Of a DNA stretch of 11,526 bases, positions 5,983 through 10,378 are shown in pieces. A program made the translations under genes and the position numbers. Location: IMG/VR virus record IMGVR_UViG_2537561670_000005, one strand, 5' to 3'. Source of the stretch: a virus (taxonomy: Duplodnaviria; Heunggongvirae; Uroviricota; Caudoviricetes). Position 1 is the stretch's first letter. Every line of letters begins with the position of its first letter. The notes under the pieces are model-generated. The model was not told the origin of the DNA, ran no database searches, and saw nothing but the letters and a program-made list of their open reading frames with translations.

Positions 5983-6208
5983 CTGTCTACCCTGTCTACC
6001 TGAGTAAAGAAAAATACATTTAATTCAGTGCATTAAGTTAGGTAGATAGCCTTTTTTTACTGTCTACCCACTATCTACCCTCTCTACCTGATTTTACCTG
6101 AATCAGACAGGGAGGTAGACACGGGGTAGATAGTGGATAAAAGCACTCTACCCCGCTGAAAGCCGCGCCATTACTGGCATGAGGGCCACTAAGGTAGATA
6201 GGTAGACA
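5983..6208. repeat. Iteron-type replication origin (about 12 copies of YCTACC / GGTAGA in both orientations flanking an AT-rich stretch)
   Basis: Tandem CTGTCTACC at 5983-5991 and 5992-6000; CTGTCTACCC 6060-6069; CTATCTACCC 6071-6080; TCTCTACC 6081-6088; CTCTACCCC 6146-6154; inverted GGTAGATAG 6041-6049, GGTAGACA 6114-6121, GGTAGATAG 6125-6133, GGTAGATAGGTAGACA 6193-6208; AT-rich 6001-6040. Confidence 0.75.
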
Positions 6209-6256
6209 AGGGGAGGCACAACTCAAAACTTTTTAAACGAGGGGGTAAAAATAAAT

Positions 6257-6535
6257 ATGCACACTTCAGGGAAATTTAATAAATCACTCAAAAAACGCAG
6301 AGACAGAACAGAACCGAAATATCGCGCGTTAGACATGACAGAGCACGCTTTAAAGGTGGCAATCAGAACGATAGACCGACACGTAGGGGAAGGATACGCG
6401 AAGGAACATCCCGACCTGATAAGCGCATTCATGACCACAGCAGCGGCAAACTTTGCCACGCTGACAGAACGGGAGATTGCCGAAGCGGAACAGGTAACAA
6501 CCATCAACGTTAAAACCGGAGAGGTGGAATCATGA
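6257..6535 (+). CDS. Hypothetical protein (92 aa), translationally coupled to ssb
   Basis: ATG at 6257 with GAGGGGG RBS at 6239-6245; stop overlaps the ssb start (ATGA at 6532-6535). No recognisable family. Confidence 0.55.
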   Translation: MHTSGKFNKSLKKRRDRTEPKYRALDMTEHALKVAIRTIDRHVGEGYAKEHPDLISAFMTTAAANFATLTEREIAEAEQVTTINVKTGEVES

Positions 6536-6954
6536 CAGCACAGATAGCCGCTTACGGGCGGCTGGTGGACGACCCGCAGGTAAAACAGACCAGCAAGGGC
6601 ACACCGATGACGCTGGCGCGTATGGCGGTCCCCCTTCCGTGCAGCCAGGCAGATGACGGAACGGCGACGATGTGGTTATCCGTCCTGGCATTTGGCAGAC
6701 AGGCCGAAGCACTGGAAAGGCACCGCAAGGGTGAACTCCTGAGCGTGGCGGGTAACATGCAGATCAGCCAGTGGACTGGGCAGAACGGAGAAACGCGGCA
6801 GGGCTGGCAGGTTATCGCAGACAGTGTAATCAGTGCGCGAACGGCGCGACTGGGCGGCAAAAAAGGTCAACAGGGCCAGGCTACTGACGCGCTGAACAGG
6901 GCAAAACAACAGGCGGGGAATGATGATCCGTACGGGGATAACATACCGTTTTAA
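6532..6954 (+). CDS. ssb: Single-stranded DNA-binding protein (short phage/plasmid-type SSB)
   Basis: 140-aa ORF with GGAGAGGTGG RBS; OB-fold pattern comparable to E. coli SSB (G.L..DP..., W..V.AFG..AE......KG....V.G.......W); Gly/Gln-rich linker and canonical acidic C-terminal tail ...DDPYGDNIPF. Confidence 0.9.
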   Translation: MTAQIAAYGRLVDDPQVKQTSKGTPMTLARMAVPLPCSQADDGTATMWLSVLAFGRQAEALERHRKGELLSVAGNMQISQWTGQNGETRQGWQVIADSVISARTARLGGKKGQQGQATDALNRAKQQAGNDDPYGDNIPF

Positions 6955-6970
6955 GCGACGAGTGACAGAA

Positions 6971-6992
6971 GCCGGAGCAATCCGGCTTTTTT
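6971..6992 (+). terminator. Rho-independent terminator after ssb
   Basis: GCCGGA-gcaa-TCCGGC hairpin followed by TTTTTT. Confidence 0.75.
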
Positions 6993-7140
6993 ACGGGTCC
7001 TCCTGGCGGGGTGGGCCTGAACACGGGGCGGGAGGCGCGGAAAAAAGCGCATTTTTGTGATTTTATCGTCATCATCATCATGAGCGTAATTTATTGTTTT
7101 TAATTGTTTTGATGCAAAAAAGATGATGGTTGTGGTTAAT
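6993..7140 (+). other. Degenerate lambda-like cos-derived segment (cos-like site 1)
   Basis: acgggtcctcctgg (cosQ-like) ... acggggcgggaggcgcgg (cosN-like, GGGCGGGAGGCG in place of the lambda GGGCGGCGACCT) ... cgtcatcatcatcatgagcgtaatttattgtttttaatt, resembling the lambda cosB skeleton (cgtcataacttaatgtttttatttaaaa). The terminator plus cosQ module (6971-7006) is about 90% identical to 9411-9447. Confidence 0.45.
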
Positions 7141-7173
7141 TTTCGTTCGACATCTTTGCAGGCAGATAAAAAA

Positions 7174-7208
7174 GCCCGATAAGGTCAGAGGTGGCTTATC
7201 GGGCTTTT
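7174..7208. terminator. Bidirectional intrinsic terminator-like hairpin
   Basis: Perfect 10-bp stem GCCCGATAAG / CTTATCGGGC with an 11-nt loop, flanked by AAAAAA (5') and TTTT (3'). Confidence 0.5.
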
Positions 7209-7264
7209 GCATATGAGGCTTTTTGGTGCACTGACACACATGATCGGGATAATCATTTCATAAT

Positions 7265-7334
7265 TTGCAACGCAACTCAACATCATTGCACAAAATGCAA
7301 TCATGATTATAATCAGAGCTGGATGAACATCCAG
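7265..7334 (+). promoter_or_regulatory. Putative promoter/operator of the capsid operon
   Basis: TTGCAC (7286-7291)-N16-TATAAT (7308-7313); palindromes ATTGCA-caaaa-TGCAAT (7285-7301), TTGC-aac-GCAA (7265-7275) and CTGGATG-aa-CATCCAG (7319-7334) between the -10 and the RBS. Confidence 0.4.
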
Positions 7335-7369
7335 TTATGATTTTTTAAGTCAAAGAGGAATTTCTTACT

Positions 7370-7576
7370 ATGGCTGAAGAGAAAAAAGGCGGTGTTTCGG
7401 TGTACATAAGCCCCGACATCGTGAAGGCGCTCAAGGAACGCCACCAGCAGAACGTAAAAGCAGGCATTGCGGCAGGACTTGATCCGCTGGCGATGGTTGA
7501 GCCGTCAACAGGCTGGCAGGTACGCTCCTATTTACGCGCGGCGCTGGGCATAAATCAGACTCATGGGGGTGAATAA
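7370..7576 (+). CDS. Small protein (68 aa), possibly ribbon-helix-helix-like; first gene of the capsid operon
   Basis: ATG at 7370 with GAGGA RBS at 7355-7359; stop overlaps the capsid gene start (TAATG). GGVSVYISPDIVKALKERHQQ resembles a CopG/Arc-type strand-helix motif; assignment tentative. Confidence 0.55.
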   Translation: MAEEKKGGVSVYISPDIVKALKERHQQNVKAGIAAGLDPLAMVEPSTGWQVRSYLRAALGINQTHGGE

Positions 7577-8631
7577 TGGCAGTCAAAGCAATGGCACTTA
7601 ACACACACCAGCTTTTCGCGTACCTGAATCGCGAGGATATTGCGGAATTTAAATTTAGTCCGCTGTTTACCGCGCTGTTTTTCCCGAACGTGGCGACATT
7701 CAACACGCAAAACATCATGCTGGATACCCTGGACATTGAAGAAGTCACCATGTCGGCGTTTTGTTCGCCTATGGTGGGTAGCCAGGTTCAGCGCGATAAA
7801 GGGTACGAAACCAGCACGATTAAACCTGGCTACATGAAGCCAAAGCACGAAATCGATCCAACGAAAACCATCATGCGCATGGCTGGAGAAGATCCGGCAC
7901 AGCTTAACGACCCTACCTATCGCCGTATGCGCCTGATTACTGGCAATATGCGCCGCCAGATAAACGCCATAAAAGCGCGCGTGGAATGGCTGGCGGTAAA
8001 TGCGGTAACGACCGGAAAAAACATCATTGAGGGCGAAGGCATAGAGCGCTATGAAATCGACTGGAAGATACCGGAAAAAAACATCATAGAGCAGGCCGAC
8101 GGGAAAAAATGGTCAGAGCAGGACAAAGAAACCCACGATCCAATCTATGATATCGAACTATACGCCGATCAGGCTGGTTGCCCCGCAAACGTCATGATTA
8201 TGGGCGTTGAGGTATGGCGAACGTTACGCAGCTTTAAAAAATTCCGTGAGCTGTACGATCTTTCCCGTGGTTCAGAGTCCGCCGCAGAGCTGGCCTGTAA
8301 AAACCTGGGCGAAGTGGTGAGCTTTAAAGGCTATCTGGGCGATATTGCCCTTATCGTCTATTCCGGCAAATACACTGACAGCGACGGCACAGAAAAATAT
8401 TTCCTTGATCCTGATTTGCTGGTCCTGGGCAACACCAACAACAAAGGGCTGGTGGCCTATGGTGCGATTATGGATCAGGAAGCGGTAAGAACAGGCGCAA
8501 CGCAAAACATGTACTACCCGAAAAACTGGATTGAGGACGGCGATCCGGCGATTGAGTACGTGCAGACGCACAGCGCACCGCAGCCGGTTCCGGCAGATAT
8601 TCGCAAATTTGTTACCGTCAAAATTGCTTAA
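7576..8631 (+). CDS. Major capsid protein, lambda gpE-like
   Basis: 351-aa ORF alignable along its length to recalled lambda gpE (341 aa): FKFSPLF..LFF, KPGYMKPKHE, DP.YRR.R.I..NMR, W...DK.T.DP..DIE.YA, FRSFK, SYKG..GD.A..VYSG.Y, VLGNT...GL..YG, YPKNW...GDPA.E....SAP. Confidence 0.93.
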   Translation: MAVKAMALNTHQLFAYLNREDIAEFKFSPLFTALFFPNVATFNTQNIMLDTLDIEEVTMSAFCSPMVGSQVQRDKGYETSTIKPGYMKPKHEIDPTKTIMRMAGEDPAQLNDPTYRRMRLITGNMRRQINAIKARVEWLAVNAVTTGKNIIEGEGIERYEIDWKIPEKNIIEQADGKKWSEQDKETHDPIYDIELYADQAGCPANVMIMGVEVWRTLRSFKKFRELYDLSRGSESAAELACKNLGEVVSFKGYLGDIALIVYSGKYTDSDGTEKYFLDPDLLVLGNTNNKGLVAYGAIMDQEAVRTGATQNMYYPKNWIEDGDPAIEYVQTHSAPQPVPADIRKFVTVKIA

Positions 8632-8642
8632 CGGGGGATTCT

Positions 8643-8978
8643 ATGGACACTCCATACATTGAGTTATTTGCAGGCAGTCAGCAGGTATCCACGACGCTGG
8701 TACATTTTGCCGCTGATGCTGGCGTTATTCAGGAATTTACCCCGCTGATGCTGGCGGACAATGGCGAGTTTAAGCCGTGGGATGGTCAGGAATCTGGCAA
8801 GGCTGTTTATCTGACTTCGTACCTCGTGGACACGTCAAAGCAGAAATCAGCACAGTGTTACAAGACGGGGATATTCAATATTGCCGCCGTTAACTGGCCT
8901 GAGAGCGTCGACACCGATGCGAAAAAATGCGCCGCCTTTGCGGGTTCTGGCGTATCCGTTCAGCCGCTGGCCCGATAA
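8643..8978 (+). CDS. Head decoration protein, lambda gpD-like
   Basis: 111-aa ORF, GGGGGA RBS; aligns with recalled lambda gpD (110 aa): TPLMLD/TPLMLA, WDG, YKSG.F/YKTGIF, WPE, KK..AFAG..(I/V)S. Confidence 0.82.
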   Translation: MDTPYIELFAGSQQVSTTLVHFAADAGVIQEFTPLMLADNGEFKPWDGQESGKAVYLTSYLVDTSKQKSAQCYKTGIFNIAAVNWPESVDTDAKKCAAFAGSGVSVQPLAR

Positions 8979-8990
8979 GCAGGGGGAACG

Positions 8991-9404
8991 ATGGCAACGA
9001 ATGAAAGCATCATGGCGCTACCGCTGGCGAGTAAATTTAAAGCCGAAGCGCGGGCAATGGCTGACAGAGGTTTATCAACCTACGAGGCCGTATATCAACT
9101 CAACAAACTGGAAGAGCAGGACAAGCCGCGCGCTGATGCGATTATGGCGCTTCATGAGCATAAAGACTATCAGCCGCTGTTGCGTGCAATGGCAAACGTG
9201 CCTTGTATCGATGTTGATACGGCTAAAAACATCCTGAACATGACCATAGAGCAGGAACGCCCGAAGGTTGCACCAGAGCTTACCGCAGCCTTTGAAAACT
9301 TTATGGACATGCACAGCCCACAAACCGTATCAGCTGGCATGGCATACGATGGCAGAAACCCAGGCGATGACGGCGACATCGATCGCATACTGAAAACCAT
9401 CTGA
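8991..9404 (+). CDS. Hypothetical acidic protein (137 aa), last gene of the capsid operon; candidate scaffold/assembly factor
   Basis: ATG at 8991 with AGGGGGA RBS at 8981-8987; followed by a terminator; no recognisable family. Confidence 0.62.
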   Translation: MATNESIMALPLASKFKAEARAMADRGLSTYEAVYQLNKLEEQDKPRADAIMALHEHKDYQPLLRAMANVPCIDVDTAKNILNMTIEQERPKVAPELTAAFENFMDMHSPQTVSAGMAYDGRNPGDDGDIDRILKTI

Positions 9405-9432: not shown

Positions 9433-9510
9433 GCGGGTCCTTCCTGGAATTATGGCCCGTTACGGGGCGGCGACCTCGCGGTTTTTCGCTATTTATGAGC
9501 TTTTTCAGGG
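9433..9510 (+). other. Lambda-type cos site 2 (cosQ + cosN, plus orientation, cosB truncated)
   Basis: gcgggtccttcctgg ... ttacGGGCGGCGACCTcgcggtttttcgctatttatgag matches the recalled lambda right-end/left-end junction (cgggtcctttccgg...ttacg|GGGCGGCGACCTcgcgggttttcgctatttatgaaaa); the 12-nt cohesive-end sequence is at 9465-9476. Downstream sequence diverges from lambda R sites. Confidence 0.8.
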
Positions 9511-10169: not shown

Positions 10170-10378
10170 AACAAAACTGAGAAACGACATGAAAGCGTCA
10201 TAAATCGCCATTTTAGATGATTACCGTGTCGTTTCTTTTTATTGTGTATCTATTTAAAAACAAATAGTTATGTTCGAGAAGTACCGACATGCTTTTTCCA
10301 GAAAAATTTTCATAAACAGATAAAAACCGCGAGGTCGCCGCCCCGTAACGGGTCCATAATTCCAGGAAGGACCCGACG
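10170..10378 (-). other. Lambda-type cos site 3 (cosQ + cosN + cosB-like R elements), minus orientation
   Basis: The reverse complement reads cgggtccttcctggaattatggacccgttacGGGCGGCGACCTcgcggtttttatctgtttatgaaaatttttctgg...ataactatttgtttttaaatag...aaaagaaacgacacgg...tgtcgtttctcagttttg, colinear with recalled lambda cosQ-cosN-cosB (tttatgaaaattttccgg, ataacttaatgtttttatttaaaa, aaaggaaacgacagg, tgtcgtttcctttctctgtttttg). Confidence 0.8.

Follow-up and report, generated by a model that had tools for sequence, protein, structure and literature searches.

How does a phage satellite that carries its own capsid genes bring about their expression? The question is raised by the virus record IMGVR_UViG_2537561670_000005, a stretch of 11,526 nucleotides (here the window, numbered from its first base) that is a phage-inducible chromosomal island (PICI) of the EcCICFT073 family, a phage satellite of Escherichia coli Nissle 1917 and ATCC 25922. 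Work on Gram-negative PICIs explains how these islands are induced (through AlpA) and how they redirect packaging (through Rpp); expression of the capsid and decoration genes is unaddressed in the papers that we searched. We examined the segment from 7174 to 7334, which lies in the noncoding gap of 415 bp between ssb and orf68, the first gene of the capsid unit. An earlier note on this segment, made from the sequence alone, had proposed a terminator followed by a promoter under a dimeric regulator. The features described below suggest that an operon of orf68, the capsid gene, the decoration protein gene, and orf137 is rather likely to be repressed by host LexA, with further layers of control that include thermoregulation.

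The capsid unit and its LexA-type box

Between the −10 hexamer of the presumptive capsid promoter (P_cap; Table 1) and the ribosome-binding site lies the perfect palindrome CTGGATG-aa-CATCCAG. E. coli SOS boxes are 16-bp dyads, CTG-N10-CAG, within the 20-bp palindromic consensus TACTG(TA)5CAGTA. The 20-bp site around the palindrome, AGCTGGATGAACATCCAGTT, conforms to the CTG-N10-CAG dyad, a match that the earlier note had overlooked, and its CTGGAT..ATCCAG arms are identical to those of the ruvAB operator (checked in MG1655 and in the published table of boxes). Starting 4 nt past the −10 hexamer, the box spans the predicted start site, a placement typical of repression. Scored against a matrix of the 18 boxes that PMC3009722 (Table 4) lists upstream of UV-induced genes, the site has a heterology index of 8.1 in Nissle and 7.0 in CFT073, and natural variants range from 5.9 to 9.2. 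These values fall inside the range of boxes that function in vivo: the 18 published boxes score 0.6 to 12.6 when each is left out in turn, with ruvA at 8.5, cho at 7.9, and uvrD at 7.8. A larger, 28-box matrix gave an index of 5.5 to 6.4. In Markov-simulated sequence, only 0.0025 sites as good as this one are expected per 11.5 kb. As a check of specificity, 118 kb of O157 Sakai DNA yielded two sites, the genuine dinI box and a site beside the integrase gene of another PICI; in 94 kb of Sakai chromosome plus prophage, the matrix found the true dinI box alone.

The control region was detected by BLAST in 619 of 5,426 complete E. coli genomes. The 701 bases around it are 100% identical in E. coli Nissle 1917, ATCC 25922, and their relatives, and the control region of the prototype island EcCICFT073 (c1495 to c1503) is 97% identical to that of the window. 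About 70 unique versions of the region were collected from E. coli genomes, from IMG/VR contigs that match the promoter-core pattern, and from IMG/VR contigs retrieved with the orf68 protein, the last of which are free of ascertainment on the promoter pattern. These versions split into a main class and a divergent class, E9, that are about 75% identical to each other. The LexA box was present at the same position in 84 of the 85 main-class loci. Its CTG and CAG are invariant in this class, and variation is confined to positions that LexA tolerates, namely, the centre (GAAC, GTTC, GTAC, or AAAC) and a CCAG-to-ACAG change, nearer the consensus. A dimeric repressor on the palindrome that separates the −10 hexamer from the ribosome-binding site, in line with the earlier note's dimeric regulator, is the best reading of this element; the regulator itself, which the note took to be encoded by helper or island, is more plausibly host LexA, given the box score, the ruvAB-like arms, and the conservation.

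The promoter that the note had described, TTGCAC-N16-TATAAT, is present immediately upstream. P_cap matches the σ70 consensus at 9 of 12 positions (6/6 in the −10 hexamer and 3/6 in the −35 hexamer, with TTG kept; 16-nt spacer). Ranked with an approximate σ70 weight matrix, it is the best match between 7150 and 7400 and the fifth best in the whole window. As a class, promoter-like sites are not enriched in the window (9 found versus 13.8 expected). Across the approximately 70 unique sequences, in both classes, TTGC of the −35 element, the 16-nt spacer, and a −10 of TATAAT or TAAAAT are unchanged. Also kept in both classes are a hairpin at the position of T2 (Table 1), the block ATCATTTCATrATTTGCAAC, TCAA, ATTGC, AAAATGCAAT, TGATTAwAATCA (which holds the −10 hexamer), the T-run, and the AGTCAAAGAGGA bases around the ribosome-binding site. 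The identification of P_cap as a promoter is indirectly supported by this conservation and by the separate behavior of the genes downstream, with transcription predicted to start at approximately 7319 to 7322.

That separate behavior is evident in published transcriptome data. The four genes of the unit correspond to c1498 (orf68) and c1499 to c1501 (capsid, decoration protein, and orf137) in CFT073, and RNA-seq of this strain (PMC12890032) showed that c1498 to c1501 are upregulated when the temperature is raised from 23 to 37°C. In the supplementary table of that study, the log2 changes were significant for c1498 (2.24), c1499 (2.05), c1500 (1.45), and c1501 (1.17) and not significant for c1495 (primase, 0.31), c1497 (ssb, 0.24), and c1503 (rpp, 0.33). 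The four changes fall along a 5′-to-3′ gradient, as a promoter in the gap predicts. Because c1498 to c1501 change apart from ssb and rpp, they form a unit separate from both neighbors, and read-through from ssb is unlikely; such read-through would also face T1 (folding energy, −18.3 kcal/mol; z = −4.1; followed by U6) and T2. These data uphold the note's view that the capsid unit has its own promoter rather than depending on read-through from ssb. They lend no support to its suggestion of late, helper-gated expression: the operon is expressed and thermoregulated in uninduced CFT073 and is therefore not strictly late or helper dependent.

In the model that we favor, rightward transcription from the replication module would be stopped at T1 and partly at T2, and the capsid unit would start from P_cap as its own σ70 promoter. 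In undamaged cells, a dimer of host LexA would bind the 20-bp operator over the predicted start site and hold the promoter down. DNA damage, by cleaving LexA, would derepress the capsid unit separately from the excision and replication genes, which AlpA drives, and the same damage signal induces lambdoid helper prophages. LexA would not act alone: there are also a 4-fold temperature effect, an invariant AT-rich block upstream of the promoter, and T3, a hairpin that encloses the operator and would terminate RNA entering from upstream. We infer LexA binding, SOS inducibility, and the exact start site from the sequence.

Hairpins and upstream elements of the control region

T1, which closes the replication module, is a perfect 8-bp inverted repeat. 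In the CFT073 and O157 islands, the T1 hairpin stands directly 5′ of T2; there the two hairpins adjoin, and a gene for a PerC-family regulator precedes T1. Islands of the Nissle type carry between T1 and T2 an AT-rich insert of approximately 180 bp (6995 to 7165) that includes a CATCATCATCAT run and marks a junction between modules. In most matching genomes, homology begins at T2 (query base 29, position 7168), and since homology between islands starts there, T2 travels with the capsid module.

The hairpin T2 pairs GCCCGATAAG with CTTATCGGGC and folds strongly on both strands (−23.4 kcal/mol, z = −4.4 on the plus strand; −19.6 kcal/mol, z = −5.2 on the minus strand), with none of 200 shuffled sequences as good. 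It has the attributes of a rho-independent terminator, with a 10-bp stem that includes 6 G-C pairs (14 bp with the A:U extension); it is absent from our terminator scan because its loop of 11 nt exceeds the limit of 8 nt. The earlier note had called T2 a strong bidirectional terminator. The strong hairpin stands, and the symmetry does not: the hairpin is followed by U6 in minus-strand RNA, or by U7 in most relatives, against no more than U4 in plus-strand RNA, so that T2 is the stronger terminator for leftward transcripts. In the E9 class, an unrelated stem (ATCCCCCGG/CCGGGGGAT) occupies this position, with A7 on its left and only TTT on its right, and the long U-run is thus on the minus strand in both classes.

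The palindrome over the capsid start site extends further than the earlier note had recognized, to 15-nt arms followed by T6, in the manner of an intrinsic terminator. The inner stem of this element, T3, is the LexA box; its outer stem (7311 to 7318 with 7335 to 7342) overlaps the end of the −10 hexamer. Full-length T3 folds with −13.4 kcal/mol in Nissle and −17.7 kcal/mol in CFT073 (z = −3.6 to −6.0), and the corresponding E9 sequence adopts a different fold (−7.9 kcal/mol, z = −2.4). The two stems vary differently. Compensatory changes in the outer stem replace CG by UA, UA by GC or CG, and AU by GC (6 cells), and 9 further cells in two variable A-U pairs are G-U, a pair that works in plus-strand RNA only; this level of covariation was reached in none of 500 shuffles. 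The inner stem shows no compensatory change and varies only by a C-to-A substitution at base 4 of its right arm (4 of 25 sequences). An inner stem constrained in sequence within an outer stem that alone is compensatory is the pattern expected of a protein site nested in a structure. Since the left arm includes the last bases of the −10 hexamer, the complete hairpin requires RNA that arrives from upstream; RNA folding indicates that in transcripts initiated at P_cap only the inner stem of 7 to 8 bp could form, at the extreme 5′ end. We read T3 as a putative third insulator before the operon, with the operator nested inside. Hairpin-templated correction of a quasi-palindrome could alternatively have produced the same pattern.

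Upstream of P_cap lies the 16-nt block ATTTCATAATTTGCAA, in which the sole change among 61 unique main-class sequences is T to C at 7261 (in 3 sequences), with one substitution in E9. It is more conserved than either promoter model needs and may be a protein site, for a regulator or for H-NS. A candidate divergent promoter, P_anti, overlaps the block: the invariant plus-strand bases at 7252, 7256, 7259 to 7260, and 7277 to 7280 are those on which a minus-strand extended −10 promoter would most depend, variation among relatives falls on −10 positions that matter less, and the E9 version reads TTGACT-17-TGaAATGAT. This arrangement suggests a transcript of approximately 80 nt, from about 7245 to T2.

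Several other features of the region were noted. By eye, five TGCA tetramers are centered at approximately 7208, 7228, 7267, 7288, and 7298, in steps of about 20, 39, 21, and 10 bp, spacings near multiples of the helical repeat. The promoter spacer (7291 to 7302) shares the 12 nt CAAAATGCAATC with lambda 44716 to 44727, in the 6S RNA just before tR′; the identity is most likely due to chance, although it falls in an analogous late-control region. Inspection by eye for σ54 −24/−12 elements, lambda CII sites (TTGC-N6-TTGC), Fur boxes, IHF sites, P2 Ogr/P4 Delta sites (TGT-N12-ACA), CRP/FNR sites, and LacI-family sites gave wrong spacing or poor matches. The phage database (50,697 records) held no DNA homologue of 7160 to 7580 and no protein homologue of orf68. 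In the genome contig collection, a scan with the capsid protein gave no match, and the promoter-core pattern gave chance matches only, in AT-rich genomes. No paper containing the hairpin or box sequences was found in the literature searched, and a search for SOS transcriptomes or ChIP data sets that include the capsid genes likewise gave none.

Table 1. Elements of the capsid control region and neighboring genes (window coordinates)
Feature	Position	Strand	Details
P_cap, σ70-like promoter TTGCAC-16-TATAAT	7286-7313	+	−35, 7286-7291; −10, 7308-7313
LexA box AGCTGGATGAACATCCAGTT	7317-7336	either	CTG, 7319-7321; CAG, 7332-7334; core CTGGATG-aa-CATCCAG, 7319-7334
T3, terminator-like palindrome with 15-nt arms and T6	7311-7346	+	arms, 7311-7325 and 7328-7342; listed by terminator scan
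ATTGCA-N5-TGCAAT palindrome	7285-7301		overlaps −35 and spacer of P_cap; perfect in the window
Block ATTTCATAATTTGCAA	7255-7270	either	16 nt; contains TTTCA-N5-TGCAA; nearly invariant
P_anti, candidate divergent promoter	7252-7280	−	−35 TTGAGT, 7280-7275; 17-nt spacer; extended −10 TGa-AATGAT, 7260-7252
T2, hairpin	7168-7209	either	stem, 7174-7183/7195-7204; A6 on left, 7168-7173; T4 on right, 7205-7208
T1, intrinsic terminator closing the replication module (ssb)	6969-6994	+	stem AAGCCGGA/TCCGGCTT, then T6
Shine-Dalgarno sequence AAGAGGA	7353-7359	+	5′ of orf68
ssb	6532-6954	+
orf68, first gene of the capsid unit	7370-7576	+	from the open reading frame list; stop codon overlaps capsid start codon
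Lambda E-like major capsid protein	7576-8631	+	Pfam Phage_cap_E, 3e-52; RefSeq annotation
gpD-like decoration protein	8643-8978	+	Pfam HDPD, 6e-17; RefSeq annotation
orf137	8991-9404	+	last gene of the coregulated unit

Alternative readings of the control region

Certain observations weigh against LexA repression of the capsid operon. The −35 hexamer of P_cap, with 3 of 6 matches, is below the at least 4/6 per hexamer of our promoter scan, from which P_cap is missing for this reason. Islands of the E9 class keep the promoter without a LexA box (index >17), so LexA control is specific to a clade and is not the sole control. An RNA hairpin or terminator would also partly account for the palindrome that forms the box. 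According to the literature, Rpp-mediated interference works on plain lambda infection, but rpp lies outside the capsid unit. The induction of the operon at 37°C in CFT073 was accompanied by no change in sulA, dinI, or umuD; the operon thus escapes full silencing by LexA and answers another signal, as a second control layer. This effect is consistent with silencing of the promoter region, which has 31% GC inside DNA of 55 to 60% GC. Silencing by a nucleoid protein of the H-NS type, lifted at 37°C, might even dominate at this AT-rich, horizontally acquired promoter, with LexA in a minor role: c1498 to c1501 rise approximately 4-fold relative to 23°C, and hlyE rises along with them (PMC12890032), without SOS induction. 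Thermoregulation nevertheless leaves unexplained a high-scoring, clade-wide LexA box on the start site, and silencing and LexA control are compatible, so that we regard dominance of silencing as improbable. We hold to a similar degree of doubt the model of the earlier note, a dimeric regulator encoded by helper or island, which would here act on TTGCA-type palindromes at 7256 to 7270 and 7285 to 7301; candidates for it would be AlpA, PerC, a phage protein, or the orf68 product, the last as a ribbon-helix-helix autoregulator. Two TTkCA-N5-TGCAA elements do stand 30 bp apart, with half-sites one helical turn apart, and a promoter alone would not require the degree of conservation seen in the block at 7255 to 7270 and in AAAATGCAAT, which extends to the 75%-identical E9 class; the conservation of AAAATGCAAT, however, is due in part to the way the loci were collected. 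The promoter is embedded in a TTGCA-type palindrome as the note had stated, but an operator role for the palindrome does not follow, because its symmetry is lost in natural variants. The left arm has A, T, or G as its sixth base, so that only the TTGC of the −35 element is invariant, and loci collected without use of the motif have TGAAAT, TGCGAT, CGCAAT, or TGCAAC as the right arm. A 6-bp inverted repeat is, moreover, expected by chance (about 0.9 per 161 nt); the segment overall is enriched in inverted repeats, with 5 observed (P ~ 0.02) and, for 7-bp arms, 2 versus 0.24 expected (P ~ 0.05). No enrichment of the motif was seen in the rest of the island, and its similarity to the alpA promoter is not significant (P = 0.26; P = 0.26 to 0.57 when that AlpA-activated promoter and the int-orf76 spacer were tested for a common motif). 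The orf68 product belongs to PHROG 3255, of unknown function, with homologues confined to E. coli, Salmonella, and Pluralibacter. Its predicted structure, an extended strand and two helices (predicted local distance difference test [pLDDT] score of 74), has the strand-helix-helix layout of a ribbon-helix-helix protein, and its only Pfam matches, all faint, are to ribbon-helix-helix families (BrnA, 0.017; RHH_1, 0.26). Foldseek, PDB, and sequence searches with orf68 returned no significant match, and with all sequence and fold matches below significance this assignment is a tentative one that we set aside.

The element at 7311 to 7346 could instead be a terminator or attenuator whose resemblance to a LexA box is incidental, blocking transcription that comes from upstream or attenuating promoter-proximal transcripts until an antiterminator (e.g., the Q protein of the helper) acts. 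The stem of 14 to 15 bp followed by U6, its stability, and the outer-stem covariation, with G-U pairs that function in plus-strand RNA only, all argue for an RNA element. Quasi-palindrome correction could mimic that covariation, however, and the left outer arm is absent from transcripts of the only conserved promoter. The inner stem, besides lacking compensatory change, tolerates a pair-breaking C-to-A substitution that makes it a better LexA box; E9 does not keep the hairpin; the region has no similarity to lambda pR′/QBE and no phage homologue; and so good a LexA match has a chance of about 0.0025. An explanation by RNA structure with an incidental box appears the least probable of those considered here. 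A pair of back-to-back promoters, by comparison, would be compatible with LexA control of P_cap. In this arrangement T2 would end not ssb transcripts but the short leftward RNA from P_anti. The invariant bases are the essentials of a minus-strand extended −10 promoter (TTGA, the 17-nt spacer, TG, A-11, and T-7) in both classes, minus-strand U6 to U7 is kept at T2 in both classes despite unrelated stems, homology between islands starts exactly at T2, and folding of the predicted RNA gives a stem-loop at the 5′ end followed by the terminator. Against this, the P_anti promoter score is modest (8.4), the RNA body (7210 to 7245) is the least conserved part of the region, and the sequence was not found in the literature searched. 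Rfam 15 (including Esr41, AgvB, AsxR, and C4/CI) gave no match to either strand of 6955 to 7370 at E values up to 1. The small RNAs Esr41 and EcOnc were considered and set aside; Esr41 lies in SpLE1 and has its own Rfam model, which finds no match here. Base-pairing of the predicted RNA with translation start regions of the island was no better than for shuffled controls. The divergent promoter is a possibility that we hold tentatively. Slightly more doubtful is the broader proposal that the module of approximately 150 bp that travels with the capsid genes is a bidirectional unit, with a LexA-operated promoter directed rightward and a small-RNA promoter directed leftward and ending at T2. Were it true, Gram-negative PICIs would have a regulatory RNA not described before, a satellite RNA of about 80 nt whose body varies between island types, in the spirit of lambda OOP RNA or P4 CI RNA.

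The island, its relatives, and comparable systems

In Nissle 1917 the island is approximately 11 kb long and is inserted at tRNA-Pro, between yejM and narP. Its genes are ordered as integrase, AlpA-like regulator, Icd-like genes with small open reading frames, D5/P4-type primase, orf92, and ssb; after the gap follow orf68, capsid, decoration protein, orf137, a Nu1-like gene (Rpp type), and orf93. The same architecture is found in the Gram-negative PICIs of Fillol-Salom et al. (PMC6092414, PMC6739421). The lambda cohesive-end sequence GGGCGGCGACCT occurs twice, in inverted orientation, on either side of the Nu1-like gene, at 9465 to 9476 (plus strand) and 10332 to 10343 (minus strand); the two copies correspond to cos1 and cos2, known from earlier work on EcCICFT073. 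Just after the primase gene (5985 to 6215) is a field of iterons, with CTGTCTACC, CTATCTACC, and GGTAGAyAG repeats, that is probably the replication origin of the island; it includes a long inverted repeat (6056 to 6137), the source of a false Rfam match to mir-135. Upstream of alpA (1634 to 1665), repeated AAACGGTG motifs (AAACGGTGTATACCGTTTAAAAACGGTGGG) form a candidate site of AlpA autoregulation and have no relation to the control region of the capsid genes.

A second LexA-like box, AGCTGTACAGAAAACCAGTA (1241 to 1260; index, 7.7), overlaps the int stop codon, upstream of alpA and of an open reading frame of 76 amino acids (1341 to 1571). The same box or a stronger one (AACTGTACAAAAAACCAGTA; index, 4.1 on the 28-box matrix) recurs at the end of int in many related islands. 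Sp7 of Sakai (1594711 to 1610171), a capsid-forming PICI beside phoQ that carries pchE and a full head module, has its only LexA-like site just after int, and no LexA box was found in front of its capsid operon; LexA control is accordingly not a general PICI trait.

The Gram-negative PICI literature that we searched makes no mention of LexA control or of the promoter described here. If the capsid operon is under LexA, SOS-dependent and helper-independent expression of satellite capsid proteins is predicted in strains such as Nissle 1917, ATCC 25922, CFT073, and O157:H7. The control of c1498 to c1501 also matters for engineered islands, since this locus was replaced by a reporter cassette in a modified EcCICFT073 (PMC10460865).

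Among known promoters, the AlpA-activated promoter of EcCICFT073 (PMC6092414) belongs to the same island family and likewise heads a plus-strand gene block. It has no motif in common with the capsid region, however, and the capsid unit is separated by terminators and regulated apart; alpA itself was reported to be SOS independent and helper dependent (Fillol-Salom et al. 2018, PMC6092414). The lambdoid pR′/tR′/Q system resembles the capsid region in having a promoter, a hairpin, and a U-run within a few tens of nucleotides ahead of head genes, and the helper phages of the island are lambdoid. In contrast to that system, the island hairpin overlaps its own start site, and the four genes are expressed without helper induction. 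A pR′/Q antitermination cassette was rejected as an identification, with no match in the 50,697 phage records and no resemblance to lambda pR′/QBE.

Closer likeness is found in the E. coli ruvAB (box CGCTGGATATCTATCCAGCA) and cho (CACTGGATAGATAACCAGCA) operators, which share with the capsid site the CTGG...CCAG variant with CTGGAT/ATCCAG arms, a similar heterology index (8.5 and 7.9, compared to 7.0 to 8.1), and a location at or next to the core promoter, which for the capsid site is a predicted one. The capsid box differs in that it stands in a mobile satellite, before virion genes, and inside a 32-bp palindrome followed by a T-run.

In logic, the nearest counterpart is operon I of pathogenicity islands from Staphylococcus aureus (SaPIs), which holds morphogenesis and packaging genes and is LexA controlled according to Ubeda et al. 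(2007), as cited in PMC6092414 and PMC6739421. In both systems, satellite capsid and packaging genes form their own unit with a host LexA operator (predicted, in the E. coli island) at the promoter, tied to the SOS signal that induces helper prophages, and excision and replication are under a separate, helper-specific switch. The differences lie in the parts. The E. coli island has a Gram-negative host and an E. coli-type box (CTG-N10-CAG) in place of the Gram-positive Cheo box, lambda E/D-like capsid and decoration genes in place of cpm/terS, and the activator AlpA as its main switch in place of the repressor Stl; LexA control is here predicted from sequence alone and is missing from one island clade. 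If the prediction holds, E. coli satellites would wire their virion genes to the host SOS response as SaPIs do, in parallel with the helper switch, and the two would represent convergent regulatory logic across phyla.

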